In this document: positions 8,687-24,195 of the stretch, piece by piece | Position numbering within the stretch: the stretch's first letter is position 1 | Layout: each line of letters begins with the position of its first letter | Assembly (NCBI GenBank): GCA_041737535.1 | Contig: JBGSRO010000107.1 | Coordinates: 6,399 to 70,398, forward strand | Direction: 5' to 3' | Length of the DNA stretch: 64,000 bases | DNA from: Pirellulales bacterium | GTDB taxonomy: Bacteria > Planctomycetota > Planctomycetia > Pirellulales > Lacipirellulaceae | Notes under the pieces: generated by a model | Database searches by the model: none | Seen by the model: only the letters and a program-made list of their open reading frames with translations | Told to the model about the DNA's origin: nothing | Program-made: the position numbers and the translations under genes

Positions 8687-8721
8687 GGCGATGCCGTGGG
8701 TTATTGGTCGCGGTGAATAGT

Positions 8722-10859: not shown

Positions 10860-12218
10860 TTAACCCTCGGCTTCGATTGTTTTCAAGCTCGATCGCAACA
10901 GTGGTCCATATTCGATTTTGCCGGGGCAGACGAATGAACAAAGCCCGAGGTCTTCTTCGTCGAGCTCAAGACAGCCCAGTGATTGGGCCGTTTCGAAGTC
11001 TTGAACCGCCAGTGACTTCAGCAGGGGAGTTGGAATAATGTCGAGTGGCATCACCTGTTCGTACATGCCGATCGGGACAATCGCGCGGTGGCTTCCCTCG
11101 GTTGAAGTAGTGAAGTTCAGTGGTTTTCCTGCGAAGACGCCCGCAAACATTGGCTTCACCGAAAACTTGCCAAAACCGGGTCCGGTCCAGCCCAATAGAT
11201 CGCGTCGATAGCCTTCTTCGAGCAACACAACTTGCAAGTGATAGCGGCCCAAAAAGTCGGTCGGAGCAACCGACTTGCGGCCAGCAAAGACCGAGCCCGA
11301 AATCACTCTTGCGGGGAATTCGAGCCCCTCTTTCACCTCGTCTCCAACCAGTTCGCCAAGCGATGCGCCGATTTGCGTGCGAACAATCTTGGGACTCTTG
11401 GCCGCCGGTCCCGCGATGGAAATGACCCGCGAGTTGTCGATGTGGCCCGTGTTAAAAAGGTGCCCAATTGCGGCGACATCTTGGTAGTTGACATACCAAG
11501 AGGTGCGGTCCATCGCGACCGGTGCGAGAAAATGTATGTGCGTCCCCGGCAGTCCAGCGGGGTGAGGTCCAGCAAAAATGACTGTTTCGATTCCGTTCAC
11601 GTTTTCGCCCGGAAGTGGACCGCCCGGTGCCCGGCACAAATAGGTCTTGCCGTCGGTCAACTGCGTCAAGACTTGCAGTCCCGACACGAAGTCGGCCTCA
11701 CGCTCGGCCAGCACAATCCGAGGGTCGGCCGCCAGAGGATTGGTGTCGATTGCCGTCACCAGGATCGCGTGGGGCATGATCTCGGGATCGGCTACTTTGC
11801 TGTAGGGCCGCGAGCGAATGGCGGGCCATAACCCCGAAACAAGCAACTTTTCGCGAACTTCGTCGGCTCCAAGCTGCGACAGATTCCGGTCACCAAATGT
11901 GCCGAAGTTAATACGGTCGTCCCCAACAAGTTCGATGGTGAGCGACTCGAACTTGCGCTTCGCACCCCGAATCACGCCGGTGACACGACCGCTTGCCGGA
12001 GCCGTGTAGCGAACCCGCGGAGACTTCTTATCGGTGAAGAGCAACTGTCCCTGCTGGACCACGTCGCCTTCGCGAATTTCCATCGTCGGCTTCATGCCAA
12101 TATAGTCGTCACCCACCAATGCGACGTGAGAAATGTTCGGCCCGGCCGAAATTTGCTGAACTGGCGCACCGGCAATCGGCAGCGTAAGTCCTTTTTTGAT
12201 AGTCACTGTCCGCAGCAT
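10860..12218 (-). CDS. nqrA: NQR subunit A
   Basis: 452-aa soluble subunit, first gene of the nqrABCDEF operon. N-terminus MLRTVTIKKGLTLPIAGAP is typical of NqrA. Confidence 0.85.
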   Translation of the reverse strand: MLRTVTIKKGLTLPIAGAPVQQISAGPNISHVALVGDDYIGMKPTMEIREGDVVQQGQLLFTDKKSPRVRYTAPASGRVTGVIRGAKRKFESLTIELVGDDRINFGTFGDRNLSQLGADEVREKLLVSGLWPAIRSRPYSKVADPEIMPHAILVTAIDTNPLAADPRIVLAEREADFVSGLQVLTQLTDGKTYLCRAPGGPLPGENVNGIETVIFAGPHPAGLPGTHIHFLAPVAMDRTSWYVNYQDVAAIGHLFNTGHIDNSRVISIAGPAAKSPKIVRTQIGASLGELVGDEVKEGLEFPARVISGSVFAGRKSVAPTDFLGRYHLQVVLLEEGYRRDLLGWTGPGFGKFSVKPMFAGVFAGKPLNFTTSTEGSHRAIVPIGMYEQVMPLDIIPTPLLKSLAVQDFETAQSLGCLELDEEDLGLCSFVCPGKIEYGPLLRSSLKTIEAEG

Positions 12219-12552
12219 ATTCTCTCAGACCTTGAGCCCGTCGGCTCGCATTAGTGGTGTCCTTCACCGTCGCGAATGGTCCACTTCGCTAGCATGGCGC
12301 AGGGACACGACGACAGGGGCGTATTGACTTCGTGAATAATTTCACAAAGTCGCCGCCAGGTCAAGGTGGGTAGGGGACCAGTTACCAAAACATCTCTACT
12401 GGGGAGCGAACCGCACAACTGCTGGATTTGTCACATGACTACTGGCATAGTGAGATTTTCGCGAACGGAAACAACGCGCCCCGTTTACAACGTGGCGGGC
12501 AGCTAACATATTGACAGTTCGTTTGCGGCGATTGCCGAATACACCTTGCGCC

Positions 12553-12625
12553 GGACAGGTAGCTCAGTTGGTAGAGCACAGGACTGAAAATCCTGGTGTC
12601 GGGGGTTCGACCCCCCCCCTGTCCA
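12553..12625 (+). tRNA. tRNA-Phe (GAA)
   Basis: Cloverleaf read by eye: acceptor GGACAGG/CCTGTCC, D-arm GCTC-AGTTGGTA-GAGC, anticodon stem CAGGA/TCCTG with loop CTGAAAA (anticodon GAA), T-arm GGGGG-TTCGACC-CCCCC, discriminator A. Confidence 0.85.
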
Positions 12626-12642
12626 CTAGACATAAGTCGAAG
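12584..12642 (+). repeat. attL: island-proximal copy of the 58-59 bp direct repeat (3' part of tRNA-Phe plus ~17 bp)
   Basis: Sequence ctgaaaatcctggtgtcgggggttcgaccccccccctgtccactagacataagtcgaag recurs at 23626..23683. Confidence 0.8.
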
Positions 12643-12749
12643 CCGAACAAGCATTTAAGTTACCTTCGGGCGTTCCGAAGTGCGGCGTTTTCCAAGGGGG
12701 TTTTCCGGTACATACCGGAAAACTCTCGGCAAATTGGGAGACCTGCACA

Positions 12750-13982
12750 ATGGCACGACCGAAGAAACTCATTCCAGACTACCGTAAGCATCGGGGGAGC
12801 GGCCAAGCGGTCGTTACCATCGCTGGCCGCGATCACTACCTAGGACCGCACGGCACCCAAGTCAGCAAGAACGAGTATGATCGGCTGATTGGCGAATGGC
12901 TCCAGAACGGCAGGCAACTGCCCGGATCGCCCGAGAGTGATTCGACAATCACGGTCGCCGAAATGGTGCTCGCGTACCTGAATCACGCTGAGGCGTACTA
13001 TCGGAAGAATGGCCAGCCGACTTCCGAAGTGGTCGACGTGAAGCTGTCGATGCGGCCGTTGCTCGAATTGTACTCTCGGCACCTGGTAAGCGACTTCGGC
13101 CCCATCGCCCTCAAGGCCGTTCGTCAACGGATGGTCGAAGGTGGTCTGTCGCGGGGCGTCACCAATCAGCGGATCGGTCGAATCAAGCGAGCGTTCAAGT
13201 GGGCTGTGAGTTGCGAGTTGATCCCCGAGACCATCGCCCGCGCGCTCGAATCGGTTGACGGGCTCAAGCAGGGACGCACAGAGGCCCGCGAGACTTCGCC
13301 TATCCTGCCCGTAGATGACAAGGCTGTCGATGCCACGCTGCCTCACCTGCCCGAAGTGGTGGCCGATATGGTCCGATTGCAGCGAGCTACCGGGATGCGT
13401 CCCGGCGAAGTCTGCGCGATCCGGCCATGCGACATTGATCGCTCGGGCGACGTTTGGACCTACACGCCAGCGAGCCACAAAACCCAACACCACGGCCGAA
13501 CTCGAACCATCGCCATCGGGCCGAAGGGCCAAGCGGTGTTGCTCAAGTATCTGGCCCGCGATCCGGCGATGCATTGCTTTCGACCGGTCGACAGTGAAGC
13601 CAAGCGGCTGGCAGAATTGGAAGCGAACCGAAAGACCCCGCCGAGTTGCGGCAACCGGCGCGGCACAAACCGTAAGGCCAAACCCAAAACAGTGCCGGGG
13701 AAGTTCTATACCCACCGGAGCTACGCGAGGGCCATCTACCGCGCGTGCGATCGAGCATTCCCCGCACCGAAGGGCACAGCAGGCGATGACCTCAAGGCGT
13801 GGCAGAAGTCGCACCGCTGGGCACCGAACCGACTGAGGCACTCGGCCGCAACGGAGATTCGCCAGCGGTTCGGATTGGAAGCGGCGCAGGTGACCCTCGG
13901 CCATGCTTCGGCTCAAGTGACGCAGGTTTACGCCGAGCGAGACCTGTCGAAAGCGGTGGAAGTTGCAAGGGCGATCGGTTAG
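12750..13982 (+). CDS. int: Tyrosine-type site-specific integrase
   Basis: C-terminal catalytic-domain motifs (RLRHSAATEIRQRFG...LGHAS..VTQVYAERD, giving R...HxxR...Y). Immediately downstream of tRNA-Phe. Confidence 0.85.
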   Translation: MARPKKLIPDYRKHRGSGQAVVTIAGRDHYLGPHGTQVSKNEYDRLIGEWLQNGRQLPGSPESDSTITVAEMVLAYLNHAEAYYRKNGQPTSEVVDVKLSMRPLLELYSRHLVSDFGPIALKAVRQRMVEGGLSRGVTNQRIGRIKRAFKWAVSCELIPETIARALESVDGLKQGRTEARETSPILPVDDKAVDATLPHLPEVVADMVRLQRATGMRPGEVCAIRPCDIDRSGDVWTYTPASHKTQHHGRTRTIAIGPKGQAVLLKYLARDPAMHCFRPVDSEAKRLAELEANRKTPPSCGNRRGTNRKAKPKTVPGKFYTHRSYARAIYRACDRAFPAPKGTAGDDLKAWQKSHRWAPNRLRHSAATEIRQRFGLEAAQVTLGHASAQVTQVYAERDLSKAVEVARAIG

Positions 13983-14347
13983 TTTCGTTTGCAGTAGCCG
14001 GGCAGCAAATAAAGTTGCTCGGCTACTATTGACAGACAATAAAACGTCAGTAAGATTCGGTGCAGTCGCAAGGAAGAGCGACGCGGCGTCATTCGTGTAG
14101 GTTAGATGGGACTCGCTAAGGCGAGGCAAAACACCACGACGCAGACGCGGGATTGTTTCGAGCCTGCGGGCGGCATGATGCGTAGCGAAACAACAGCTCC
14201 AAGCCGAAGCACCCGTCGGCGAGGATCGAGTGTAGGGGAAGCCGGGGTACTTCTAAGGCCCACCGCTCCGGCTAGCGCCAGCAGCTTTCAACATCGAAAC
14301 TGCCGCTAGCTCCCCTGCATATTCTATCGGGTCTAGCGGCACCACTC

Positions 14348-14650
14348 TTGGGCCTTGCCATGACCGCCGAAATTGTACCGGGTGAAAAACTCTACCCACT
14401 GGCCGACGCAATTGAGAAAGCGACCGGCTATCGTCCCTCACCGTCGACCGTGTGGAGATGGAAGCTCCGCAAGGGCTTGCCATTCGTTTTGGTAGGAGCG
14501 ATCCCGCGCACATCGGTCGAAGCTGTCCACCGCTGGAATGAAGCGGCCACCGCCGCCGATCGTGGCGAGTCGCCGAAGGCCCGCACGAATCGCCAGCGTG
14601 AAGCGGGCATTGCGAAGGCCGAGCGTGCGCTGGCCGAAGCCGGTATCTGA
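14348..14650 (+). CDS. Small DNA-binding protein, possible excisionase/AlpA-like
   Basis: 100 aa. Putative HTH (STVWRWKLRKGLPFVLV). Lies directly after the integrase. Function inferred from position and motif only. Confidence 0.4.
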   Translation: MGLAMTAEIVPGEKLYPLADAIEKATGYRPSPSTVWRWKLRKGLPFVLVGAIPRTSVEAVHRWNEAATAADRGESPKARTNRQREAGIAKAERALAEAGI

Positions 14651-14744
14651 GAGTATCGCCGCCGAACCGGCAGGTGCGCGCGGCGCGCACCTGCCCGAGA
14701 GTAACCGCATTACCCCCGCTCCCCCAACAAACGCGACGCCCCCC

Positions 14745-15317
14745 ATGAACGATGAATTACAAGTCGTGATAAGCGAGAATCGACAGCAAGCGGCCGAGGA
14801 AGTTCTGAATCGCTTTCCGCAATGGAGCGACCGCCGTATCGCTAAGCTGTGCGGACTCTCGCCGACGACCATCAGAAAAGTTCGGCGTCGCTCGGCCGCT
14901 GCGTTGGCAGGCGCGCGCGGCGCGCGCCTGACCTCAGACGAGCCCGCAAAGCGAATCGGCGCGGATGGCAAGTCCTACCCGGCGACGACAACTAATCAAA
15001 AGAAAATGTCCGGTTTGCCCAGTTGCGCGCGAGGAAAGGACGAAAGCGAACCGAAGATAGAAGGGCATTTTAAGCCAACAAAGGAAAGCAGCGTGCAACA
15101 AGAAACAAACAAAGTGCCAAAAACGCCAGCGTTTGCGTCTGGCGAAACGTGGTTGACGATGGCGGAAGTAGTTGAGCGATGGCGAAGCTCCGCGCCGACC
15201 ATTCGCGCGATGGCCGCTCGCGGACGGATCAAAATGATTCGGCTTCTCGACAGGTCGCCGCGCATCGCGCTCTCTTCGGTGTTGGCCATCGAAAACGAAA
15301 CGATCGGCGATGACTGA
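14745..15317 (+). CDS. Island protein with two helix-turn-helix motifs (putative regulator)
   Basis: HTH-like SDRRIAKLCGLSPTTIRKVRRR and C-terminal LTMAEVVERWRSSAPTIRAMAARGRI. Start moved to the internal ATG at 14745; the track ORF begins at 14538. Confidence 0.45.
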   Translation: MNDELQVVISENRQQAAEEVLNRFPQWSDRRIAKLCGLSPTTIRKVRRRSAAALAGARGARLTSDEPAKRIGADGKSYPATTTNQKKMSGLPSCARGKDESEPKIEGHFKPTKESSVQQETNKVPKTPAFASGETWLTMAEVVERWRSSAPTIRAMAARGRIKMIRLLDRSPRIALSSVLAIENETIGDD

Positions 15318-15479
15318 GCCCGTCAAAACCATCGGCGATCTACTGCGCGAGCAGGCGCGAGAGCGTGAAGCCGAGCTGCAAACGAGCGACGGCCGCCGTG
15401 CTGAACGGACTGGCAGGACGCGCGAGGAAATCGAGCGAGACAGAATCCGAGACTCACTGAAAATCATGCGAGTGCCCCA

Positions 15480-16124
15480 GTGACGAACTGCAAAATTATC
15501 GAGCCCGACCTGAAAGAAAATCCCATCGTCTGTGGCGAAGAGGGCGACGGCATCGCGATGGGCGACCGAACGGCCGACGGGTTCGTGAGTCTGGAACTTC
15601 GGGGCTGTATCGACGAGGACTTGGCCGAGACCTTGGAGCAATGGAGCTGGCAACTCGCCAACCATGAAAAACGACGCGGCGGGATACTCTGGCTCGATTG
15701 CTGTGGTGCGGTGCTGACTCCCAAGCTGGTGCAAGCTATCAGTCACTTGATCGACGCGCACAACCGGGGCATACCGGTGTTTTGCGTTGTCGAGCGTGCG
15801 CTTGGCGGGTCGATGCTGCTCTCGACTGCGTGCTCCGAATCGTGGTCGCTTCCACTCGCGACCTTCGGTGGCTTTGTGTTCTCGCCACGCACTGGCGCGG
15901 TGGTGAATCGCAGGGAGTTCACCGGATCGGCCAATGCGTCGGTCCAATATCTGGAGCTGCTCACACCGGGAGCAAACTTGCGCAATCTCGACACCGTGTT
16001 TTCGGCCGAAGTGGCCGAAGCTCGCGGCTTGGTCGAATGCATTCGCAGCGACATTGCGACCGCCGACGATGCGATCGACTCGCTGCGAGAGTTCGTAGCT
16101 GACCACCCAAGTTTTCTTTTGTAA
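15480..16124 (+). CDS. Hypothetical protein, possible ClpP/crotonase-fold
   Basis: Segment GGILWLDCCGAVLTPKLVQAISHLIDAHN...VFCVVERALGGSMLLSTAC loosely resembles ClpP/S49-fold peptidases. Weak call. Confidence 0.3.
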   Translation: MTNCKIIEPDLKENPIVCGEEGDGIAMGDRTADGFVSLELRGCIDEDLAETLEQWSWQLANHEKRRGGILWLDCCGAVLTPKLVQAISHLIDAHNRGIPVFCVVERALGGSMLLSTACSESWSLPLATFGGFVFSPRTGAVVNRREFTGSANASVQYLELLTPGANLRNLDTVFSAEVAEARGLVECIRSDIATADDAIDSLREFVADHPSFLL

Positions 16125-16135
16125 TCGGAGTTGAG

Positions 16136-16525
16136 TTGATGATTGATTTTGATGCTGAACTGACGAACCGCAAAAACGCCATCGCCGCCGCGTGCATCGG
16201 GGCGGACGATGCGTTCATCATGGCCGCCATCGCCGCTGGGACTTCGGCCGAGGATGCGAGCCGACAATGGCAACAGAAGCTGATTGCCGAACGTGACAAA
16301 GCGACCACGGCCGCCGCCGCCAAGCAGCGCGGAACGCAGCTCACGGCTGGCGTACCCGGTGTCGACAGCGAAGAGGACTACGGCGCGATCGTCAAAGGCT
16401 TCATGGCGAAGGGCATGACTCGTTCGCAAGCCTGCCACAAGGCGGCGAAGCAGTACCCCGAAGCTCACGCGGCATTCGTTGCGAGCTGCCCCGCTCCGAC
16501 TCGCAAAAGCAAGTCACGGTCGTAG
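16136..16525 (+). CDS. Hypothetical island protein
   Basis: 129-aa Ala-rich ORF in an operon-like array. No recognisable motif. Confidence 0.3.
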   Translation: MMIDFDAELTNRKNAIAAACIGADDAFIMAAIAAGTSAEDASRQWQQKLIAERDKATTAAAAKQRGTQLTAGVPGVDSEEDYGAIVKGFMAKGMTRSQACHKAAKQYPEAHAAFVASCPAPTRKSKSRS

Positions 16526-16598
16526 TTCTTGGGTTGGGCCGGTGCGGTGGGATGGCTCCGGCCGCGCCGGTCCTTTTTTTCTTTGCGAGACTCACGCG

Positions 16599-17528
16599 AT
16601 GATGAGCGGCAAACTATTCGCGATTGCTCCCGGCCGAGCTTCCGATGCGGCACTGGCCGAGCCTGAGAATAGCTACTCAAGCTATCGAGTTGGCGGTTTG
16701 ACTGTTGTCGAAGTCGAGGGCGTGCTTGACGGCGCGATCACGAACCGCTTGCGGCGCGACGTGTTGCAAAGTGAACGAGACGAGTCGGTCACAGAGCGGA
16801 TCATTCTTTTTGATTCACCGGGCGGGTCGACCGACGGCAACGACGACTTAGCGGCCACGATCCGCGCGAGCCGAGAAGTGAAACCAATCACAGCCATCGT
16901 GCCATCGGTGGCAGCGAGTGCTGCGTACAACCTTGCCGCGAGCTGCTTGCGAATAGTTGCCAGCCCGGCCGCGAGCGTTGGTTCGATCGGCGTCTTTAGC
17001 GTGCTGGTTGACAGTAGTGAACAAGCGGCGTTGCTTGGCTTGCGAGTAATCGTCGTGCGAAGCGGCCGCTTCAAGGGCCTCGGCATTCCGGGCGTCGAGG
17101 TGACGCCCGAGCAAATTGAAAATCTACAGCGAACGGTCGACGGTCACGCGAGACTATTTCTCGCCAGCGTCGCGAAGGGCCGACGCATGGCGACCGGCAG
17201 ACTACAGGAGCTTGCCGACGGCTCGATGTACATGGCGAGTGAAGCGAAGGCCAACGGCTTAATCGACGAAGTGAAATCCGCTCACGACTATCTTGAAGAA
17301 CGAATCGAGTACCACACAGGGCAGGCGCGCGCGGCGCGCGCCTCGTGGCTGTCACAACCACGCGCGAAAGTCATAGAGGCTTATAGCGAAGCCGTGGCAA
17401 AAGAAACCGGCCGGAGTCTTCCACTCACGTCGGTCGAGCTGCGACGTTCGTTGGTCGACAGTCGTGAAGAGTATCGCGAGCTTGCAGAAGCATTCCACAA
17501 ATTGACTCGTAGCCACTCCGGAGCTTGA
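16599..17528 (+). CDS. S49-family serine peptidase (SppA / phage prohead protease-like)
   Basis: Motifs ILFDSPGGS, catalytic-Ser region VAASAAYNLAAS, C-terminal ...ASEAKANGLIDEV. Start at the internal ATG (MMSGKLF); the track ORF begins at 16479. Confidence 0.7.
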   Translation: MMSGKLFAIAPGRASDAALAEPENSYSSYRVGGLTVVEVEGVLDGAITNRLRRDVLQSERDESVTERIILFDSPGGSTDGNDDLAATIRASREVKPITAIVPSVAASAAYNLAASCLRIVASPAASVGSIGVFSVLVDSSEQAALLGLRVIVVRSGRFKGLGIPGVEVTPEQIENLQRTVDGHARLFLASVAKGRRMATGRLQELADGSMYMASEAKANGLIDEVKSAHDYLEERIEYHTGQARAARASWLSQPRAKVIEAYSEAVAKETGRSLPLTSVELRRSLVDSREEYRELAEAFHKLTRSHSGA

Positions 17529-17529
17529 A

Positions 17530-18423
17530 GTGACCACACCACTCGAAACGGCGAAAGCCAAACTGGCCAGTCGGCGAGCCGACTCACTCGGCGACATACT
17601 CGCTTTTGAAGAAATCCTACAGTCGCTCGACGGCAAATGGCGGATTTTGCCGGTCGATGAGCGAGCCATTGGCATGGCCGCTGGCGAGCTGAGTACCGAC
17701 TCTCGCGAAGATCGGCGTCGGTTGAGCGTCGCACTCAAGCGGCTCGATAGTGAGGCCGAGTTGCGTCGGCAGTACGGCACGGCCGAAGAGCGCGAAGCGA
17801 CGGTTCGCCGTTTGGAATCACAGCAGGCCGACTACGCTCGCGCAAAACAGTTTGCCGACGAATCCATCGCCGGAATCTTGCGTGCTCTCGCAGTCGAAGA
17901 GGGGAAGCTCGCGGCCATTCGCCAACGGCGGCAAGCGACGGTACAGGCACGGCAGAGCTTGCTAAGCCTTGCCCGCACGAAGCCGTGGCTCCATCGCATG
18001 AGCCAAGCCAGCTCGCTGCCGAAGCCGGAAGAGCTGGCCGCGCTGGAGCAGCAATCGCTACAGTTCAGGGACTTCTTGCGTTCCAAAGAGCAACTGCAAA
18101 AAGACCCGGCGATCCTCGCGCGAATCTACCCGGACCTCGTGACCGAGCGGGACGCACTCAAGCGGTCGTTGTTCGGCTGGGCGTTTGACCCCTACCAATC
18201 GCCGCCGTTGCGAGCTCCCGATCGACCCGCGAAGGGCTGGGTTATCGACGGCGAGCGACTCGCGATTGCGCGCCAAGCAATCACTGCTGAGTTGGTTAAG
18301 ATTGAAAGCCAGATCGCGGAGATAGGGGCCGCATGGCGTGGCGAGTTGGCCGACGGCGACCTGCTAGAACAGTGGGTAGAGCATGGGCTCCAAGGGCTGG
18401 TAGGCAACGCAGATGCGACGTGA
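17530..18423 (+). CDS. Hypothetical coiled-coil protein (island)
   Basis: 297 aa, begins 2 nt after the S49 peptidase stop. Helical and charged, with no motif I recognise. Confidence 0.4.
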   Translation: MTTPLETAKAKLASRRADSLGDILAFEEILQSLDGKWRILPVDERAIGMAAGELSTDSREDRRRLSVALKRLDSEAELRRQYGTAEEREATVRRLESQQADYARAKQFADESIAGILRALAVEEGKLAAIRQRRQATVQARQSLLSLARTKPWLHRMSQASSLPKPEELAALEQQSLQFRDFLRSKEQLQKDPAILARIYPDLVTERDALKRSLFGWAFDPYQSPPLRAPDRPAKGWVIDGERLAIARQAITAELVKIESQIAEIGAAWRGELADGDLLEQWVEHGLQGLVGNADAT

Positions 18424-18609
18424 GCAGGCAACCGCTGCGGCAGGCGCGCGCGGCGCGCGCCTGCCCGAGAGCGACGCCAGCGAGCCCTCAGCCCCCCCCT
18501 TTGGGTCCTTCCCGGGGGCCACCCGGGGTGAGGCTTTGCCCGCGATCTTGTGATATTTCCTCTCAGACGACTCCAAACTCCAAGTAAGTAAGCGGCAACT
18601 TGAGGCATC

Positions 18610-18894
18610 ATGTCAGACTTACCCAGCACCACCGCAGAGCAATTCGGAGAGCAGGTCGCCGCTCTGGATGATGCAATGCTCGCCACGCTGGAGCTGCCCG
18701 CGCTGGAGCCCGTGCGGCGGCACGTTCGCCGCTTGTTCGCGTGTCGGTACACAGGCGACTTGGGGAGTGACCTGTTGCTTAGCCAAGCTGCCGACTCGGC
18801 CGCTCGCGTCGCCTGTTGCTACGCGAGTGGCGACGCGAGCCGATGCGGTCGAGCCTTTACCTGCCCACACTGGGCGACCTGTTTGCCGTGCTAA
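18610..18894 (+). CDS. Hypothetical small protein (island)
   Basis: 94-aa ORF with good start context. No recognisable motif. Confidence 0.3.
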   Translation: MSDLPSTTAEQFGEQVAALDDAMLATLELPALEPVRRHVRRLFACRYTGDLGSDLLLSQAADSAARVACCYASGDASRCGRAFTCPHWATCLPC

Positions 18895-18911
18895 TAGACG
18901 AACGATAACCG

Positions 18912-19223
18912 ATGGGTGCTGACCTCAACTTAGTGTTCGCGGAGAAGGGCGCGGCAGGCGTGCTCCGGCAGCTCGCTTCGCTCAAGAGCGAAGCCAAGAA
19001 TGCGGGCAAAGAGATTGCCGCCCAGAACGCGGCCATCTCTAAGTCACAAAAGGAAATCGAACGCGCCTACCAGCAAACGCTCTCGCCAATCCAAAAGCTG
19101 GAGAATCAAGCCAAGTCGCTCGCCGCCGCGATCAAAGACACGAAGCTGCCAGACTTCGACCGTCGCAAGGCCGAGGCGGCGCTCGATGGTCGGAAGCATC
19201 GGAACGATTTACCCGCACGCTGA
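18912..19223 (+). CDS. Coiled-coil protein, possibly scaffold-like (island)
   Basis: 103 aa, Lys/Glu/Ala-rich heptad-like sequence (KSEAKNAGKEIAAQNAAISKSQKEIERAYQQ). Confidence 0.4.
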   Translation: MGADLNLVFAEKGAAGVLRQLASLKSEAKNAGKEIAAQNAAISKSQKEIERAYQQTLSPIQKLENQAKSLAAAIKDTKLPDFDRRKAEAALDGRKHRNDLPAR

Positions 19224-19551
19224 GTACAGCAAGCAACTCGAAACGGCTGGCATCGCGGTGACAGTTTTCACGAATTCCGACTCGCCGCGCAAGTCGCATG
19301 GCTCGCCTTACAAGGCGCTGGACGAATCGAGCCGATCGACATTGCAAGAATTCGTCGACAGCTATGGTCGACCATTCATCGAGGACGTTTCGAGGTATCG
19401 CGGAGTCGACGTTGACAAAGTCGTTTCGGACTACGGCGGCGGCGATGCACTCCGCGCGTCGGTCGCCATCAATAAGGGCGTGGTCGATCGCATCGTGCGC
19501 GACTTCGACGATACAATCAGCCGCATGATTCAAACCACCACGACGAGCTAA
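19186..19551 (+). pseudogene. Truncated S49-peptidase C-terminal fragment (paralog of 16599..17528)
   Basis: AGIAVTVFTNSDSPRKSHGSPY.../...LQEFVDSYGRPFIEDVSRYRGVDVDKV...GGGDALRASVAINKGVVDRIV parallels the C-terminal half of the upstream S49 protein. It lacks the catalytic Ser motif. Confidence 0.45.
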
Positions 19552-20213
19552 AAACCGAGGCGGCCATCGTCACACTTGCCGCTGGTATCCGCGGCTGGCG
19601 AAAAATGATCGACGGTCACAACCTTTGGTGGGCCAAGCTCAATGCCGAGCTGGAGCACATGGGCGAACGGCTCACAGAATTGCAGACACTTCGCGATCGG
19701 ATCATCGAGGAACTCGAAAGCGATCCGGCCGATTGGTGGAAAGATCAATAGCAACTGCGCGCGGCGCGCAGTTGAAAACCCGCTAGAAAACGAGGAGACG
19801 AACCAACAAAAAAATGAGCGACGCTGACATAGCCCCCTTTTGGGCAGAGAACGGAATAGAAGCGGCGATCCGGCTGAGGGGTTACACCCGTCGAAGCGAA
19901 CAACGTTGCGAAACGAGTGAAGCAATCGCGCGAGTAGGGGCACGCTGACAACTCCAGCCCCTAAGCGAACCGTACGACAGTCGTGGAGTGAATCGGGAAG
20001 TGCGACTGAATAAACAAAGTGCCCGAGCAAGTCGACGGCTGGCTCCGAAGTTTGCCATTTTCTTGCTCAACTCCATCTTCGGATGGAGTTGCTGCGCTCG
20101 GGCTTCACCAAAGTTTGCCGAAGGCAAACGAGCATTCGGTACAGCGCATAAAGAGAGCCGGTCAGGACGCTGACAAGGCTCCACCTGACCGGCTCAATAT
20201 TCAAGCTGCTTGA

Positions 20214-20552
20214 ATGATACGAACAACGCGCGAGGCTGTCCAGCATTGGGCGTTCGTCTGGTCGAGCATGATGCGAAAGGATTGCACCGCTTCGCAGATC
20301 GCCATGTTCGCCGCTGAGCGACAGCAACAGCTCAAGCCAGCAGCGAAGGAACGGCAACGCGAAGGTGGCAAGACTGCTGGGCGTGGTCGCCCAAAGCAAG
20401 ACGAAAAGGTTCCGGCAGCGTTGCCGGAACCTAAAGAGACTCGCGACCAAGCCGCCGAGCAATTTGGCATCGGTGCCCGCACGGTCAACAAGGCGGCGAA
20501 CGTCTTAGAGGGGGGCTGCGAGCGAAATACGGTCTCCGCATTTGCGCCCTAA
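20214..20552 (+). CDS. Putative HTH DNA-binding protein (island)
   Basis: C-terminal AAEQFGIGARTVNKAANVLE resembles an HTH recognition helix. Confidence 0.35.
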   Translation: MIRTTREAVQHWAFVWSSMMRKDCTASQIAMFAAERQQQLKPAAKERQREGGKTAGRGRPKQDEKVPAALPEPKETRDQAAEQFGIGARTVNKAANVLEGGCERNTVSAFAP

Positions 20553-20697
20553 CGAGCGCCGACGACCTAACCCGACTACTGAGACCCTGGAAGCGGTCCC
20601 CGTTTGAGACCAACGCGCAACCGCAACCATTGGTACTTGTACCATTAGTTGCTGGAAGCGGTCCCCATTTGAGACCGAAGCACGCAACGCGGCTGTC

Positions 20698-20961
20698 ATG
20701 CGACTTTGGTTGCAGTGCTACACCGCTGAAGAGATTGCATCGCGAGTTGGAATGCCACGCAGTTCGATCGAGTCGCTATTCCCGAGAATCCGCAATTACG
20801 AAATCTCGGGAATACCCGGTATTTTCACAGAGGATGAACCACCCGACTCGGCAACAGCAAGCGACCAAAAAAGCGGAGTTGACACCCGCGCGAATCACGG
20901 CACAATGAGCGTCGGCTGGCGAGAGCCTGAAAAACTCTCACTGGCGACACTTCTAGACTGA
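20698..20961 (+). CDS. Putative HTH protein (island)
   Basis: YTAEEIASRVGMPRSSIESL is a sigma-region-4/resolvase-like HTH. Confidence 0.35.
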   Translation: MRLWLQCYTAEEIASRVGMPRSSIESLFPRIRNYEISGIPGIFTEDEPPDSATASDQKSGVDTRANHGTMSVGWREPEKLSLATLLD

Positions 20962-21124
20962 GGAATTCTGAAAATGTATTTCCGAGCGAACAAGCCCGGT
21001 AGCGCGTGCGCACCCCCAAGCGATAACCCCGGAAGCGGGATAGCGAGGCTGCGCGGCAGGGACTCAGTCCCCTGTTTTTCAACGTCGCTATCGGGCTTGT
21101 TCGCGTTTTGGAAAGGGCTCCCCG

Positions 21125-21517
21125 ATGGTATGCCTAGCAGTCCCCGTATTCGGTGGTCGCGTTCCTATCGACCGATCGCTACCGAAGCTCCGCCAAGCAC
21201 ACGATCAATTCGATAACGACAACTTGCCCGGCTGTGCCGTGCTGTTGCGTGAAGCGATCCGCCTGCACTTGATCGCGGTTGCCGAGTTCTACAACGTCAA
21301 ACCCGACCGACCGCAACACCCGGCAAACTTGCTCGCACAGCTAGCCGAAGCGAAAGCGCTCAAGAGTGGGCCGGTTCATTGGTTCCGCGAAATCTTATTC
21401 ACCTGCCGACGTGTTCTGCGATGCGCGGACGTTTCGGCGCAAGCAATGGAGTTCTGCCTCGCGTTCGCTTACGAGAACATCGACGCCAATCACCAACACT
21501 TCGGGGAAAGGGTTTAG
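21125..21517 (+). CDS. Hypothetical protein (island)
   Basis: 130-aa ORF that ends 2 nt before the recombinase start. Confidence 0.3.
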   Translation: MVCLAVPVFGGRVPIDRSLPKLRQAHDQFDNDNLPGCAVLLREAIRLHLIAVAEFYNVKPDRPQHPANLLAQLAEAKALKSGPVHWFREILFTCRRVLRCADVSAQAMEFCLAFAYENIDANHQHFGERV

Positions 21518-21519
21518 CC

Positions 21520-22623
21520 ATGAACGAGCCTCAAAAGTTGACGGAATTTCTGATTCACAACTACGGCCCCGTGCGGAATCTCTCTGCGGGAACAATCGCT
21601 ATCTACAACCAATCGATCCGCTTGTTGGCTGAGCATATCGGGCGGGAACCCACCCTCGATGACCTTATCGAAGAGAACATTTTCGCAGTCGCCAACGGGG
21701 GGGCTAAGCCGCACTATACCGACGCGTTGCGTGCCATGAGTCGCTTCGACGGGCGGGCCTACTTCACTCAGGGCGAGACTCAGTACGATTCGGAGTTGTC
21801 TCGCTTCCATGCCGAGAAGGGGCATACTCGACGCACCCGCGAGCATTACCGGGCAGTCTTCCGGCGCTTCGGCGACTTGGAGTTGACCGACGAGAATCTA
21901 GCCGTTTATCGAGAACAGCGGCTTGCTCATGGGCTTGCCAAAGATTCCGTTCGCGGAGAGCTAGGCAGATTGATGGCCTATGCTCGATGGAAAGGATTAA
22001 ACCCGAAAACGCAACAGCCGAAGAAAGTGCGACGCGAGCCGCAAGCGTGGTCGCGCAATGAATTGCGTCGGCTGTTCAAAGAAGCTCGCACGACCGAACG
22101 CACTATCTACGGTATCCCAGGCGCGATCTATTGGCCCGCGATTCTCGGCTTGGCGTATGACACGGGCGAACGGATTACCGCAATAGCGGCTCTTGAGTGG
22201 AGCGACATCGACTTCGACCAACGCTCGGTTCGTTATCGTGCCGAGACGCGCAAGGGTAGCTGTGCGGACCACCAGGGGACGTTTAGCCGTGGCACGCGTC
22301 GCGATCTGTTGCGGCTTCGCGGGTTCGGGAAAGGCAGACCGTTTCGACTCGGCTGCGAATCGACGCGATGGAAAGCGTACACGACCCTACTGAAGGATGC
22401 GGGGCTGCCCAGCGACCGACGGTCGAAGTTTCATCGCCTTCGCCGAACACACGCGACTTGGTTGCATTGGTCGGGCGGCGACGCGACAGCATCGCTAGGG
22501 CATTCGAGTAGCGATATCACCCGCGATGCGTATCTCGACAAGCGGTACACCCGCAAGGGGCGATTGCCGAGCATTTCAGTTGGCATCGTCGCAACTGTGT
22601 TGGCATGGTTCGGCTGGCGATAG
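21520..22623 (+). CDS. Tyrosine recombinase (phage-integrase family)
   Basis: C-terminal HRLRRTHATWL...LGHSSSDITRDAYLDKRY gives the R/H-x-x-R...Y catalytic motifs. Start at ATG 21520 (MNEPQKL) with an upstream GGAAAGGG. Confidence 0.7.
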   Translation: MNEPQKLTEFLIHNYGPVRNLSAGTIAIYNQSIRLLAEHIGREPTLDDLIEENIFAVANGGAKPHYTDALRAMSRFDGRAYFTQGETQYDSELSRFHAEKGHTRRTREHYRAVFRRFGDLELTDENLAVYREQRLAHGLAKDSVRGELGRLMAYARWKGLNPKTQQPKKVRREPQAWSRNELRRLFKEARTTERTIYGIPGAIYWPAILGLAYDTGERITAIAALEWSDIDFDQRSVRYRAETRKGSCADHQGTFSRGTRRDLLRLRGFGKGRPFRLGCESTRWKAYTTLLKDAGLPSDRRSKFHRLRRTHATWLHWSGGDATASLGHSSSDITRDAYLDKRYTRKGRLPSISVGIVATVLAWFGWR

Positions 22624-22671
22624 CAATTCTCCCCGCACCGTCCGCACTTAACCCCAACTGGAAACGAATTC

Positions 22672-23391
22672 ATGTACTTCGAAAAACTCTCCGACTACCA
22701 TTGCCAGAAAAACCACGGCACACGAACGCGCTCGCACTATCGCGCCATCATCGAACGATTCGGCAACCAGGCTATCGCGCCGGAATCAATTGCCGAGTAT
22801 CGTGACAAGCGACTCTCCGAAGGTCGCACCGCTGACACTGTTCGCGCGGAAATCTCAAAGCTCTGTGCGTTCGCACGATGGCTCGGCGTCGATCCTGAAT
22901 TGACTCTCCCGCGCAAGGTGCATCGCCCGCCGACAGAATGGAGTTGCCAAGAATTGCATCGGCTGTTCGCCGCCGCTCGCAGCACAAGCCGAATCATCTA
23001 CGGCGTTCCCGGTTCGATTTATTGGCCGGCCCTACTTGGTGTCGCTTGTGATGCAGGTGAACGCATCAGAACCATTGTCGGCATCGAATGGGGCGACATC
23101 GACTTCGTTCGCCGTTCGGTCATGTATCGAGCCGAGTTATGCGAGGGGGATGCCGCTGATAACTGTTGCTGCACCCTCAGTCGTCGCACAGTCAAAGATT
23201 TACTACTATTGCGAGCCAGCGGCGTTGAGAGACCATTCCGGCTGGGCTGCGAATCGACGCGATGGAAAGCCTATAAAACGCTGCTGGAAGACGCCGGATT
23301 GCCCAGCGATCGCCGCAGTAAGCTCCACAGATTATGCCGAGCGAATATGTCATTGGTTCACAGAGCAGGCGTTTGGCTTGGCTGGCGTTAA
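22672..23391 (+). pseudogene. Degenerate tandem paralog of the 21520..22623 recombinase
   Basis: Colinear with the upstream recombinase (…RPFRLGCESTRWKAY.TLL.DAGLPSDRRSK.HRL…). It lacks the N-terminal domain and replaces the catalytic Tyr-containing tail with …CRANMSLVHRAGVWLGWR. Confidence 0.5.
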
Positions 23392-23625
23392 CTTTCCCGC
23401 GCCCGTCGTCAGCAATGGCGACGGGTTTTTTCGTGCGCGGAAATTGTAGCCGTGGCTAAATTCGCCCCCGAGTTATCCGGTACAGTACCGTTTTACGATT
23501 CACGCAATACCGAAAACCTCGGGAAATAGTGCAATCGCGTGAAATAGCTTGCAATGGCACTCGGCAGGCGTTAGACTCTACAAAACAAGGGGAAAACGCC
23601 GAACAAATGCTTGTTCTAGGTTCGC

Positions 23626-23683
23626 CTGAAAATCCTGGTGTCGGGGGTTCGACCCCCCCCTGTCCACTAGACATAAGTCGAAG
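23626..23683 (+). repeat. attR: distal copy of the tRNA-Phe 3'-end direct repeat
   Basis: Identical 58 bp to 12584..12641. Followed by an extra tcgaag unit. Confidence 0.8.
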
Positions 23684-24014
23684 TCGAAGCCGATTGGTGA
23701 GTTGCGAATGCACATCGGCGATCGGGAGATCGCCGCAATCGTGGCCGTCGACGATGCGACCATCCAGCCCACCAGCAAGAGCTAAACCGAGGTTGTGGCT
23801 GACCTGTTTCGGCTCCGGCACCTTTTTCGGCTCCGGCAATTCGTGCAATGGAAGCCAGAAGAGGCTCGTCCTCAACAGCAGGTCACTTCGCCAGAGGTCA
23901 ATTGGCCATTTGGCGGGCTAGACCTTTATGACAGGTGGCTCAATCTTCAGGGAGCAGTCCAGTTTAAGGAAAAGCCGAAGAGAGGGGCCGCTTTTTGAGC
24001 GGCAACACCCTGAG

Positions 24015-24096
24015 CGGAGGACAAGGGACTCGAACCCTCAACCCCTTGCGGGGCAACTGATTTCGAATCAGTCTGCTAGCCATTCGCTTATCCTCC
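24015..24096 (-). tRNA. tRNA-Ser-like (predicted anticodon CGA), type II
   Basis: On the minus strand: acceptor GGAGGAT/GTCCTCC, anticodon stem ACTGA/TCAGT with loop TTCGAAA, long variable arm (GCCCCGCAAGGGG), T-arm GAGGG-TTCGAGT-CCCTT. I could not fold the D-arm cleanly by eye. Confidence 0.55.
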
Positions 24097-24195
24097 GAAT
24101 AGACAGCTAGTTTAGTGCGTCGACCGAATAGGGACAAGCCGTTCTTGACGTTGGTTCGACCCAACCTGTCCCAACCTTCGACAGCCTTTCGAGAA

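Follow-up and report, generated by a model that had tools for sequence, protein, structure and literature searches.

Five GC-rich dyads lie in an 11-kb island that is inserted at a tRNA-Phe gene in the 64-kb window (the whole stretch of DNA analysed here). We propose, with our confidence about evenly divided, that they are candidate binding sites of the parS, bisS or OB kind for the island's own ParB-family HTH protein, amplified to five copies. The 13-mer GCGCGCGGCGCGC is found exactly five times, starting at 14676, 14913, 17327, 18446 and 19757 and always with the central G on the + strand, and no other exact occurrence is present in the 64 kb. With up to one mismatch it gives 13 matches on both strands, against 2.26 +/- 1.88 in shuffles (0/100 shuffles reach 13), and the 23-mer CAGGCGCGCGCGGCGCGCGCCTG with up to three mismatches gives eight (four sites on two strands) where 0.01 is expected. 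The remaining 53 kb of the window, beyond the island, has no copy of this type, and no stray half-site was found outside the five sites. Nine of the window's 12 perfect palindromes with arms of at least 9 bp fall in the island (binomial 1.9e-5).

Table 1 Positions in the window of the palindromes and of the island features around them
Feature	Position	Strand	Evidence or description
tRNA-Phe (GAA), integration target	12553..12626	+	ARAGORN; Rfam tRNA 73.8 bits
Left att-like direct repeat, island boundary	12584..12647	+	97-100% identical to 23626-23688
Tyrosine integrase, 410 aa	12750..13982	+	PF00589 1.3e-10; phrog_1 4.9e-28
DUF1580 / excisionase-like small protein	14360..14650	+	PF07618 2.9e-11; phrog_66 0.0088
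Palindrome copy 1	14669..14695	.	GGCAGGTGCGCGC G GCGCGCACCTGCC; 13-bp arms
ParB-family HTH protein, 190 aa, without ParB N-terminal domain	14745..15317	+	Homology, profile searches
Palindrome copy 2	14908..14930	.	CAGGCGCGCGC G GCGCGCGCCTG; 11-bp arms
S49 peptidase / head-maturation-protease homologue	16599..17528	+	PF01343 1.3e-30; phrog_53 4e-44; homologue alignment
Palindrome copy 3	17322..17344	.	Perfect over 17323-17343; 10-bp arms
Palindrome copy 4	18439..18465	.	GGCAGGCGCGCGC G GCGCGCGCCTGCC; 13-bp arms
Palindrome copy 5	19752..19774	.	CAACTGCGCGC G GCGCGCAGTTG; 11-bp arms
Further palindrome	20068..20091	.	CAACTCCATC TTCG GATGGAGTTG; family-type outer arm, 4-nt centre
Further palindrome	20407..20432	.	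AGGTTCCGGCA GCGT TGCCGGAACCT; in frame (KVPAALPEP) in ORF 20214-20552
Right att-like direct repeat, island boundary	23626..23688	+	Repeat search

The initial annotation had reported near-identical GC-rich dyads at five island sites, and these prove to be five exact copies of GCGCGCGGCGCGC within perfect dyads of 21-27 bp. Its boundaries for copies 1 and 4 (14669-14695 and 18439-18465) stand, whereas the start at 14907 moves to 14908, and 17319-17345 and 19751-19773 become 17323-17343 and 19752-19774. A 15-bp core is common to all five dyads, any change that sets one copy apart from another is mirrored in both arms, and no copy has an unmirrored change within its inner 10 bp. The compensatory change described for copy 1 is indeed present in both arms (C>T/G>A). 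Copy 5 adds three mirrored changes (CAACTG...CAGTTG), its outer arm being the other variant of the family, AACTG, and the 23-mer of copy 3 has one outer mismatch. Copies 1 and 4 have in common a 34-nt unit, CGGCAGGYGCGCGCGGCGCGCRCCTGCCCGAGAG, which is 94% identical between them and includes non-palindromic flanks. A genome-wide search for the motif had also been proposed. When 185,579 species genomes, the JGI metagenomes and IMG/VR were scanned, only single, chance-level matches came back, and no genome among these species representatives, a collection that does not hold the source genome, has more than one copy. The dyads are real and, within the window, restricted to the island, and they are probably not a genome-wide REP element.

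The genes around the five copies form a one-directional array, and every copy is on its sense strand. Three follow a stop codon within about 20 bp, as the initial annotation had observed: copy 1 is 18 nt past that of the DUF1580 gene, copy 4 is 15 nt past that of a 297-aa ORF, with the next ORF 144 nt further on, and copy 5 starts 0 nt after the TAG of a 48-aa ORF. The other two were correctly placed in frame inside the HTH and S49 genes, and they are read in different frames. Copy 2 encodes aa 55-62 of the HTH protein, AGARGARL (LAGARGARL), and copy 3 encodes QARAARAS (GQARAARAS) in the linker after the S49 domain, a linker that is not conserved in the homologue alignment. The two further palindromes in Table 1 are uncertain members of the family. 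The second lies just before a stretch that looks like an HTH by eye, without a family match, and it also matches a terminator pattern on the - strand.

The left att-like repeat begins with the 3' part of tRNA-Phe. The island carries three tyrosine recombinase genes and has internal duplications, namely three S49-like segments and two truncated integrase paralogues. No replication or terminase gene was recognisable in it with Pfam, PHROG or NCBIfam, and no RAYT was seen among its ORFs. Rfam 15, run over 12000-24500 at E <= 1, left the palindromes unmatched; its significant matches were two tRNAs only, and two weak ones overlapped tRNA-Phe and its att repeat.

The proposed binder of the dyads is the HTH protein encoded at 14745-15317. 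Two sites are physically linked to its gene, with copy 2 inside and copy 1 49 nt upstream of its start. The protein has an N-terminal HTH ('WSDRRIAKLCGLSPTTIRKVR'), a helix extension encoded by the palindrome, a 'RIGADGKSYP' hairpin and a C-terminal HTH_17 domain. Its HTH_23 and HTH_17 matches are both under the Pfam cut-offs, and neither Pfam nor NCBIfam gives a significant ParB match for it. The AlphaFold model has a pLDDT of 83-97 over aa 1-62, and Foldseek returned generic HTH folds only, all at E > 1. The protein matches the ORF of a metagenome locus, L051, with a BLASTP E of 8e-10, and its HTH is homologous, by profile search, to that of three proteins bearing ParB_N (P0127, P0128 and P0132; PF02195). 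One of these full-length family members, P0127, aligns through the HTH to the parB_part and Noc models, below their cut-offs, and the gene family matches phrog_1033 (3.5e-13 to 1.8e-16). Together, these comparisons indicate that the HTH gene family is ParB-like. The island protein itself lacks the ParB_N (CTPase) domain, which speaks against it as the binder.

The match that we take as decisive for reading the palindromes is L051. Its homologous ParB-like HTH ORF contains a palindrome, CAGGTGCGCGCGGCGCGCACCTG, whose position and reading frame are those of copy 2, and the 23-bp core of copy 1 is identical to this in-gene palindrome. Among closer homologues fetched by protein similarity, 12 of 16 have a palindrome of 17-33 bp in the post-HTH linker (11 perfect and one with a G.T), and an in-gene palindrome is present in 4 of 7 independent viral loci. 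It starts 1-5 codons past the recognition helix in most members and 5-6 codons past it in the window. The sequences differ between members and keep one register, A(GG/AC)TG-N11-CA(CC/GT)T. When palindromes were predicted from the linker peptides of eight proteins, the DNA matched seven exactly and one with a single G.T. Codon shuffles attain the observed arm length in at most 2 of 300 trials for eight of the nine perfect cases tested. At the peptide level, 64 of 94 family representatives (50% identity) have a linker able to encode a palindrome of this design, where 20% would be expected (8e-24), with a sharp peak at +22/+23 residues from the anchor motif. The reading frame varies among members, being xCA GGY for L051 and the window but CAG GTG elsewhere, and thus it is the DNA that is conserved, not the peptide. 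Because homologues have the palindrome at the same place, the position of copy 2 is ancestral in the gene family, and the idea, implicit in the initial annotation, that the in-frame copies are insertions fails for this copy.

The five-copy state is unique to this island among the elements examined; the others have the in-gene palindrome without a second copy within +/-10 kb. The family pattern does not predict this state, a point against the binder reading. Several different palindromes lie side by side in L009 (six, within 230 bp), L067 (four) and L080 (three), and one binder per element does not account for them.

The symmetry of the dyads extends to their centre. When 18 dyads are aligned on their centres, only 2 of the 180 cells at pairs 4-13 (counting from the outer end) are unpaired, with one G.T, and 61 cells are changed on both sides. 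A covariation test on these dyads scored 0.698, compared with 0.197 for shuffles (0/500) and 0.07-0.18 when the partners were slid; it is partly circular because these dyads were picked for being palindromes. In 18/18 dyads the two bases beside the single central base are complementary, and the centre is at most 1 nt in about 14 of 16 independent palindromes (hand count), against 25% expected under hairpin-stem selection alone (2.6e-7). Since a 1-nt loop cannot form, symmetry to the centre fits a dyad read on duplex DNA and points to a symmetric double-stranded DNA site. The annotation had left a choice between structure and a dimeric binder. The latter, or an operator, is favoured by this symmetry, by the family-conserved in-gene position and by the same register of the homologue palindromes, whereas structure of the REP or terminator kind is unsupported.

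Recognition-helix identity tracks half-site identity in a weak co-variation (Mantel r 0.30, p 0.036); for the rest of the HTH there is no such relation (Mantel r 0.09, p 0.27). The window and L051 have an inner half-site in common despite unlike recognition helices (SPTTIRKVR and SGHFVKKIR), an observation that runs against the binder reading. Another point against it is that the arms could stay perfect with no binder at all, through templated correction of quasi-palindromes.

It is unlikely that the dyads are structural hairpins of RNA or single-stranded DNA, whose 10-13-bp GC stems, once transcribed on the sense strand of the co-directional operon, would guard the mRNA before them against 3' exonucleases, make RNA polymerase pause or terminate, or act as punctuation in the transcript. 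The sense-strand orientation and the three positions just past stop codons are in line with such a role, as are the stable predicted RNA hairpins (local MFE between -17 and -37 kcal/mol) and the family member L075, where pairing is kept only via G.T (G.U in RNA). However, the folds have only modest z-scores (-0.5 to -3.3), hardly any G.T pairs occur (1 in about 180 cells), and the pair beside the 1-nt centre, to which the palindromy reaches, is unusable by a hairpin. An intrinsic terminator is a GC-rich hairpin whose loop of 3-8 nt and stem are followed by a T-run. The five copies lack a T-tract, the sequence downstream being CCCGAGAG, ACCTCAGA, CGTGGCTG or AAAACCCG, and the terminator scan detects none of them, though canonical hairpin-plus-T terminators occur in the same island (16558 and 23401 on the + strand, 20432 on the - strand). 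REPs and Rickettsia palindromic elements (RPE) are similarly short GC-rich palindromes that are found past stop codons and sometimes in frame in ORFs, and one end of a REP carries a tetranucleotide tag, GTAG or CGTC (PMC3733652). This tag is absent from the flanks of the five copies on either strand, and the island palindromes further differ from REP/RAYT and RPE in the low copy number seen in the window and the scanned genomes, the ancestral position of copy 2 and the symmetry through the centre. The missing tag and T-tract, the Rfam result and the lack of any species representative with more than one copy argue against the REP/terminator reading of the initial annotation, which would also leave the conserved position beside the recognition helix unexplained.

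We consider it improbable that the palindromes have no trans-acting partner. A palindrome born in the linker would then have been copied by short-patch recombination or template switching and kept perfect by arm-to-arm templated repair, or the palindromes would be joints where HTH modules duplicate or exchange. The common flanks of copies 1 and 4 fit copying, and when read in the frame of copy 2 they resemble the family linker (...GARGA(H/R)LPES...EPS..., compare GARGAHLESEPSP in L051), suggesting copied gene fragments. P0124 consists of tandem HTH modules with a palindrome bounding each, and the other duplications and the recombinase genes of the island accord with the same idea. Templated repair accounts for perfection but not for the register, the outer motif and the position in genes less than 50% identical. 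The C-terminal tail of the S49 protein past copy 3 aligns weakly with homologue tails, so that a rearrangement joint is not indicated there, and because copies 2 and 3 differ in frame, recombination between them would give no in-frame fusions. To our knowledge, typical tyrosine-recombinase cores need no symmetry through the spacer, and nothing in this analysis points to the recombination site that had also been suggested.

Replication-origin or DNA-packaging sites inside the gene of their own reader protein, like the lambda ori iterons in gene O or the pac sites in small-terminase genes, are very improbable: the type-specific dyads in the linker-coding part of the putative binder's gene, the six clustered palindromes of L009 and the relatives L067 and L069, which look like small integrative satellites with primase/helicase and small terminase, would suit them, but five sites over 5 kb do not resemble one, neither a replication nor a terminase gene is recognisable in the island, a single site is the usual state among relatives, and we know of no ParB-family protein that acts as an initiator or terminase.

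Several known systems resemble the proposed ParB-like protein and its sites. In lambda, the ori iterons lie in frame in the linker-coding part of gene O, right after the DNA-binding domain, and sites and domain are type-specific among relatives; however, they are four tandem 19-bp iterons for replication initiation, and the protein fold is unrelated to the island HTH protein. In ParB (Spo0J)/parS and Noc/NBS, a dimeric HTH reads a perfect palindrome and the sites are often in genes; one B. subtilis parS sits within spo0J itself. The 16-bp even dyad of parS is conserved across bacteria, whereas the island family has 21-23-bp odd dyads that vary between close relatives, and the island has no ParA gene. 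Plasmid RK2 has 12 OB sites, mostly at promoters. Its ParB-family HTH global regulator KorB similarly uses many copies of one odd perfect dyad over a mobile element (core TTTAGCGGCTAAA), but OB is 13 bp long against 21-27 bp in the island, and KorB is a CTP-dependent sliding clamp that acts with KorA (PMC11790492).

BisD, the ParB-like clamp of the integrative element ICEclc of Pseudomonas, loads at bisS GAGCTATCCCCnGGGGATAGCTC, an 11-1-11 perfect dyad of 23 bp with two copies, both in genes (inrR and ssb), and serves gene regulation rather than partition (PMC12409273). The parallel is one of arrangement: a ParB-like protein of an integrated element with an 11-n-11 dyad in more than one copy, some in genes. 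BisD has a CTP-binding ParB domain and an activator domain and spreads over 50 kb, unlike the island protein, which lacks the former, and bisS is outside the bisD gene, whereas copy 2 is inside the HTH gene. The outer 8 bp of the palindrome of one family member, L089 (GAGCTATC), equal those of bisS. StrR, a regulator with a ParB-like domain, binds the inverted repeats GTTCGActG(N)11CagTcGAAc (PMC8306873), whose inner tetranucleotides ACTG...CAGT stand 11 bp apart as in the family register (copy 5, ACTG-N11-CAGT), and some homologues of the L051 protein are named 'streptomycin biosynthesis regulator' at NCBI. The N11 of its site is not reported as palindromic, and its HTH lies about 80 residues past the ParB-like domain (aa 197-230; PMC10886168), unlike the HTH position in the island family. 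The StrR parallel is a mere resemblance.

We then propose a model for the ParB-like HTH protein and the five dyads. A dimer of the island protein, and possibly also related full-length ParB-like phage proteins with the same site, would bind each dyad. Each half-site comprises an outer block that is conserved in the family, A(GG/AC)(T/C)G, located 6-10 bp away from the centre of the dyad, and an inner 5-bp block that differs among elements and would set specificity. One ancestral site would have lain in frame in the linker past the recognition helix and been duplicated four more times in the island. Copy 1, upstream of the regulator's own gene, would likely serve autoregulation, and the other extra copies lie in the S49 gene (copy 3) and in two gaps between genes of the co-directional array (copies 4 and 5). 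One protein could therefore occupy five points over about 5 kb. It is tempting to speculate that, once bound, it acts as a repressor of transcription, as a block to elongation, or as the nucleus of a larger complex on the island operon.

The five GC-rich dyads of the tRNA-Phe island (copies 1 to 5 from left to right; 15-mer motif YGCGCGCSGCGCGCR) are real and non-random. The exact 13-mer GCGCGCGGCGCGC occurs five times in the 64-kb window, at 14676, 14913, 17327, 18446 and 19757, and each occurrence forms the middle of a perfect odd palindrome with its central G on the plus strand. With up to one mismatch on both strands, the 13-mer has 13 matches, against 2.26 ± 1.88 in dinucleotide-preserving shuffles, none of which reached 13; with up to three mismatches, the 23-mer has eight matches in the window against 0.01 expected. 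The five near-identical dyads described in the initial annotation are thus borne out, with exact positions that were off by a few bases at most. Its compensatory arm changes are also confirmed: the three outer-arm variants, CAGGCG (in three copies), CAGGTG and CAACTG, differ by four substitutions, and each of these has its counterpart in the other arm. A non-palindromic tail is common to copies 1 and 4, giving a 34-nt unit with 94% identity. Of the 19 GCGCGC (BssHII) sites inside the island, 16 fall within the five palindromes, and another 19 lie outside the island; avoidance or enrichment of this site as an explanation led nowhere further.

All five copies lie within the 11-kb island, which also holds nine of the window's 12 perfect palindromes whose arms reach 9 bp or more (1.9e-5). 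Rightwards on the plus strand, the island encodes a tyrosine integrase, a DUF1580/excisionase-like protein, a two-HTH protein (14745-15317), small unknown ORFs, an S49 head-maturation-protease homologue, a 297-aa ORF that looks coiled-coil by eye and has no family match, and two decayed integrase paralogues. No portal, capsid or terminase genes were found in it, and with its internal duplications the island resembles a decayed prophage or satellite. The island was also assembled independently (L011, a Logan SRR28170464 contig); this contig spans 12613-18791, starts exactly inside attL, and differs from the window at one base, C/A at 18435, four bases upstream of copy 4. No homologous island for a classical covariation test was found in the databases searched, and the S49 and HTH island proteins are near-orphans, the former with 37-39% identity at best and the latter with one remote match. 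The S49 linker around copy 3 is not conserved among homologues and gives no support either way to an in-frame insertion into S49.

Features of the island, and palindromes and peptides of related genes
Feature	Position	Details
tRNA-Phe gene	12553-12626	island boundary
Direct repeats bounding the island	12584-12647 and 23626-23688	63-64 nt
Palindrome, copy 1	14669-14695	13-bp arms
Palindrome, copy 2	14908-14930	11-bp arms
Palindrome, copy 3	17323-17343	10-bp arms
Palindrome, copy 4	18439-18465	13-bp arms
Palindrome, copy 5	19752-19774	11-bp arms
S49-like ORF	15480-16124	possible third segment; by eye, no family match
S49 head-maturation-protease homologue	16599-17528	full gene
S49 fragment	19204-19551	Pfam
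Decayed paralogous integrase genes	21379-22623 and 22672-23391	73%-identical DNA stretches in common
Peptide context, L051		...WSDRRIAEKLSVSGHFVKKIR...SGARGAHLESEP..KRTGKDGK
Peptide context, window		...WSDRRIAKLCGLSPTTIRKVRR..AGARGARLTSDEPAKRIGADGK
DNA-confirmed palindrome		AGGTGGCAAC G GTTGCCACCT
DNA-confirmed palindrome		AACTGTCAAC G GTTGACAGTT
DNA-confirmed palindrome		CAGGTGGTATC G GATACCACCTG
DNA-confirmed palindrome		GAGGTGCAAAC C GTTTGCACCTC
DNA-confirmed palindrome		AGTGTGTTC G GAACACACT
DNA-confirmed palindrome		AGGTGAGGAA T TTCCTCACCT
DNA-confirmed palindromes, P0124		four different, one after each of four HTH modules

Further repeats were observed in the window. A perfect palindrome with 11-bp arms at 12700-12723, GTTTTCCGGTA CA TACCGGAAAAC, lies between attL and the integrase start; its fold z-score of -6.1 is the strongest among all hairpins tested, and the palindrome is possibly an operator of the integrase or the terminator of tRNA-Phe. 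Two more island palindromes, at 20407-20432 and 20068-20091, have family-type outer arms (AGGTT..., CAACT...) and 4-nt centres. The former lies in frame (KVPAALPEP) in ORF 20214-20552, just before a stretch that looks like an HTH by eye and has no family match (...TRDQAAEQFGIGARTVNKA), and also matches the terminator pattern on the minus strand; the latter has a TTCG loop. Outside the island, the stretches 46978-47885 and 50246-51943 hold ~260-nt tandem coding repeats (47062-47580 and related copies), like repeated domains of one gene, and a run of GCCACCACC-type 9-12-nt repeats, both unconnected with the dyads.

The genome-wide motif search proposed in the initial annotation was run with the query CAGGYGCGCGCGGCGCGCRCCTG on public collections that do not include the source genome, and no REP-like multi-copy genome was found. 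The query matched ten loci among 185,579 genomes (one per species), each as a single copy and in unrelated taxa; it had no match in IMG/VR and 24 single-copy matches in JGI metagenomes, mostly on contigs of 62-72% GC and inside unrelated ORFs. These numbers are about those expected by chance for a GC-only 23-mer. A genome-wide REP is therefore rejected as far as the collections allow, with only single copies per genome, nearly all in unrelated high-GC contigs. The REP- or terminator-like reading as a whole is disfavoured, as no T-run follows copies 1 to 5 in a terminator scan of the island that detects canonical hairpin-plus-T sites at 16558 (+), 23401 (+) and 20432 (-), the GTAG/CGTC tags that define known REP super-families (PMC3733652) are absent at the five copies, and Rfam gave no match.

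Two database matches are non-random. L051, a 9-kb phage-like metagenome contig, carries CAGGTGCGCGCGGCGCGCACCTG inside an ORF homologous to the island HTH gene (BLASTP 8e-10), in the homologous place and the same reading frame as copy 2. The flanking protein is ~31% identical to that of the window (42% over the trimmed HTH region), and the 23-bp site differs from copy 2 by only one mirrored pair; copy 1 is identical to this in-gene site of the full-length ParB-like L051 protein. L009, a Planctomycetota MAG contig (JAADGV010000022.1), holds six perfect 22-24-bp palindromes in tandem within 230 bp (609-837). Their outer arms, (T)CAGGTG or (T)CAACTG, are the variants of window copies 1 and 5, and their inner parts all differ. 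One of the six is a chimera of the two arm types. The array follows a small HTH-looking ORF, and a tRNA-like 3' fragment lies ~450 bp beyond the array.

A profile built on the island HTH protein and the L051 ORF retrieved a family of ParB-like HTH proteins with 21,664 clusters (50% identity) at E ≤ 1e-3 and 9,989 at E ≤ 1e-10. Members often have a ParB N-terminal domain, followed by an HTH of the form NADKRRAVE..L...WSDRRIAE..GVS..FV..VR, a short linker and EP.KRIGADGK.YP. The linker peptides, such as QVATVATS, QVVSDTTC, QLSTVDS, EVQTVCTS and ELRTIRSS, resemble translations of palindromes, and palindromes were predicted from them before the coding DNA was fetched. Seven of the predicted palindromes proved perfect in the DNA, and one (in L075) had a single G.T. 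For eight of the nine perfect cases tested, no more than 2 of 300 codon-shuffled versions of the gene reached arms as long as those observed. The closer homologue P0128 has no in-gene palindrome, and the family profile also led to seven independent IMG/VR loci, four with a palindrome and three without. Since no in-gene palindrome was found in more distant ParB-like genes (cyanobacterial plasmids, phages MW202898 and MT835519), the feature marks a subfamily. No description of an in-frame palindrome behind a ParB-like recognition helix was found in the literature searched, whose coverage was incomplete.

Some members have tandem HTH modules. In P0124 (L067:5948-6538), a different in-frame palindrome comes after each of the modules, making four within 460 bp; P0137, P0147 and P0218 are also tandem HTH-module arrays, and proteins with 4-5 matched stretches appear in the representative search. 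In phage MW202898.1 (L076:13821-14496), three similar inverted repeats of the type CACTTCGC-N5-GCGAAGTG lie just downstream of the ParB-like gene and may be a conventional parS cluster.

We also surveyed the linker at the level of the peptide. The anchor motif W..R.IA is present in 94 of the top 150 representatives, and in 64 of these the linker holds a peptide that could come from a palindrome with a 1-nt centre and arms of 10 bp or more, against 20% expected from the background rate elsewhere in the same proteins (8e-24). Encodable peptides peak sharply at +22/+23 residues from the anchor (45 of 99 anchors), and a second, smaller peak lies over the conserved RRAVE motif, so encodability does not prove a real palindrome and the survey result remains a peptide-level prediction. 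All predictions checkable against DNA held.

When 18 dyads are aligned on their centres, they fall into one common register: an invariant A at -10, GG, AC or AG at -9/-8, T at -7 (C in three window copies) and G at -6, followed by five variable bases and a single central base. The register can be summarized as (A)GGTG or (A)ACTG, N11, CACC(T) or CAGT(T). Because members use different reading frames (xCA GGY GCG in the window and L051, CAG GTG elsewhere), it is the DNA and not the peptide that is conserved. At pairs 4-13 from the outer end, only 2 of 180 cells are unpaired, one of them a G.T, and both sides have changed in 61 cells. The dyads reach a covariation score of 0.698, compared with 0.197 for shuffles (0/500) and 0.07-0.18 with slid partners, figures that overstate independence because the dyads were preselected as palindromes; this preselection does not affect the register they share, the conservation of the outer block or the fixed gene position. 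Across ten gene/site pairs, half-site identity correlates weakly with that of the recognition helix (Mantel r 0.30, p 0.036), compared with r 0.09 (p 0.27) for the rest of the HTH; linkage of DNA-adjacent features could alone produce the correlation.

One possible explanation for the symmetry is that the dyads act as RNA or ssDNA hairpins instead of duplex sites. This is disfavoured, as the base pair flanking the centre, from which a hairpin gains nothing, is complementary in all 18 odd dyads with a single central base, and there are hardly any G.T pairs. In about 14 of 16 independent palindromes the centre is no longer than one base, against one in four expected under stem-only selection with a minimal 3-nt loop (2.6e-7). 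Pairing beside a 1-nt loop is useless to a hairpin but useful to a two-fold symmetric protein on duplex DNA; symmetry that reaches the pair next to a 1-nt centre is thus our main argument for a dimeric binder. Alternatively, templated repair of quasi-palindromes would keep the arms perfect. Full symmetry is also expected from such repair, but the register and the gene position are left unexplained.

Together, the symmetry through the centre, the common register and the fixed position in ParB-like genes make sites of a dimeric binder, or an operator of an island regulator, the best-supported of the readings offered in the initial annotation, with roughly an even chance of being correct. The follow-up also gave a broader, family-level regularity that is possibly new.

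Comparable systems include a parS site inside spo0J and the lambda ori iterons inside gene O. The closest described system is BisD/bisS of the integrated element ICEclc, in which the ParB-like clamp BisD loads at GAGCTATCCCCnGGGGATAGCTC and bisS is an 11-n-11 dyad with two copies, both within genes (PMC12409273). The 11-n-11 design and the in-gene copies are shared with the island dyads. KorB/OB of RK2, an odd dyad (TTTAGCGGCTAAA) in many copies for global regulation (PMC11790492), is comparable in being odd and multi-copy. Judged by sequence, the dyads would class with known parS/bisS/OB-type sites, as a variant. StrR sites, GTTCGActG(N)11CagTcGAAc (PMC8306873), share the ACTG-N11-CAGT spacing of the family register; since the StrR HTH is placed elsewhere in the protein (PMC10886168), this link is a lead only.

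Two IMG/VR contigs were noted in these comparisons. L089 has an in-gene palindrome at 8679-8711, GGAGCTATCTGTAAC AAA GTTACAGATAGCTCC, with 15-bp arms; in its outer 8 bp, GAGCTATC, it is identical to the bisS site of BisD, which was defined by experiment. The array pattern CACCTGA-N-TCARSTG-N10-11-CASYTGA gave 30 IMG/VR matches, about chance, with one real array, in L016 (12220-12630; IMG genome 650377940). This is a hairpin array with ATCAGGTG.../ATCAACGG... stems, interspersed with TACC(T/C)GTAAC motifs, and a MobV-type relaxase-like ORF comes immediately downstream of it. The array looks like an oriT and probably has no connection with the window dyads, given this neighbour, the lower GC of the element and the 3-6-nt loops.

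The proposed binder is the island HTH protein. Its family matches phrog_1033 "ParB-like partition protein" (L051 3.5e-13, P0127 1.8e-16), full-length members carry PF02195, and P0127 aligns through the HTH to the parB_part and Noc models, below their cut-offs. The island protein itself is a short form that lacks the ParB N-terminal domain. In its AlphaFold model, residues 1-62 have pLDDT 83-97, with a recognition helix (40-62) that continues through the palindrome-encoded residues 55-62 and is followed by a beta-hairpin at RIGADGKSYP. Foldseek of the N-terminal HTH model against the PDB returned generic HTH matches, all with E > 1, and a profile search of PDB sequences gave no match.

If the island protein behaves like ParB-family regulators, each dyad would be bound by one of its dimers. 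Binding at copy 1, 49 nt upstream of the binder's own start codon, would lead to autoregulation, and copy 2, inside the binder gene, may be a roadblock. Along the S49 module follow copies 3-5, of which two are in gaps between genes and one is in a linker between domains. This five-fold repeat of one site has no parallel among the other elements examined: these have either one in-gene site or a group of adjacent palindromes that differ in sequence. Such arrays of different palindromes, seen in L009, L067 and L080, are not accounted for by one binder per element.

It is tempting to speculate, though we regard it as rather doubtful, that ParB-like HTH genes of phages, satellites and islands (~10,000 clusters at 50% identity, E ≤ 1e-10) hold a "self-embedded specificity cassette", that is, their own 21-23-bp dyad target right after the recognition helix, in the fixed register A(GG/AC)TG-N11-CA(CC/GT)T. 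Site and helix would diversify together, so that recombination could never part binder from site, and the site would have been amplified to five in the island. Because copy 1 equals the in-gene site of the full-length L051 protein, the island may recruit or titrate a helper phage's clamp.

If so, the cognate sites of thousands of uncharacterised ParB-like mobile-element proteins would be readable from their own coding sequence, and specificity, cross-talk and incompatibility between elements would be testable with an oligonucleotide and a purified domain. The system would be a CTPase-less, multi-site addition to the ParB-family regulators (KorB, BisD, VirB, Noc) and the second case, after lambda O/ori, of binder and site on one DNA stretch. 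For the island, the dyads would provide a regulatory map of five candidate sites along the int-proximal operon and a possible link to a phage with the same site.
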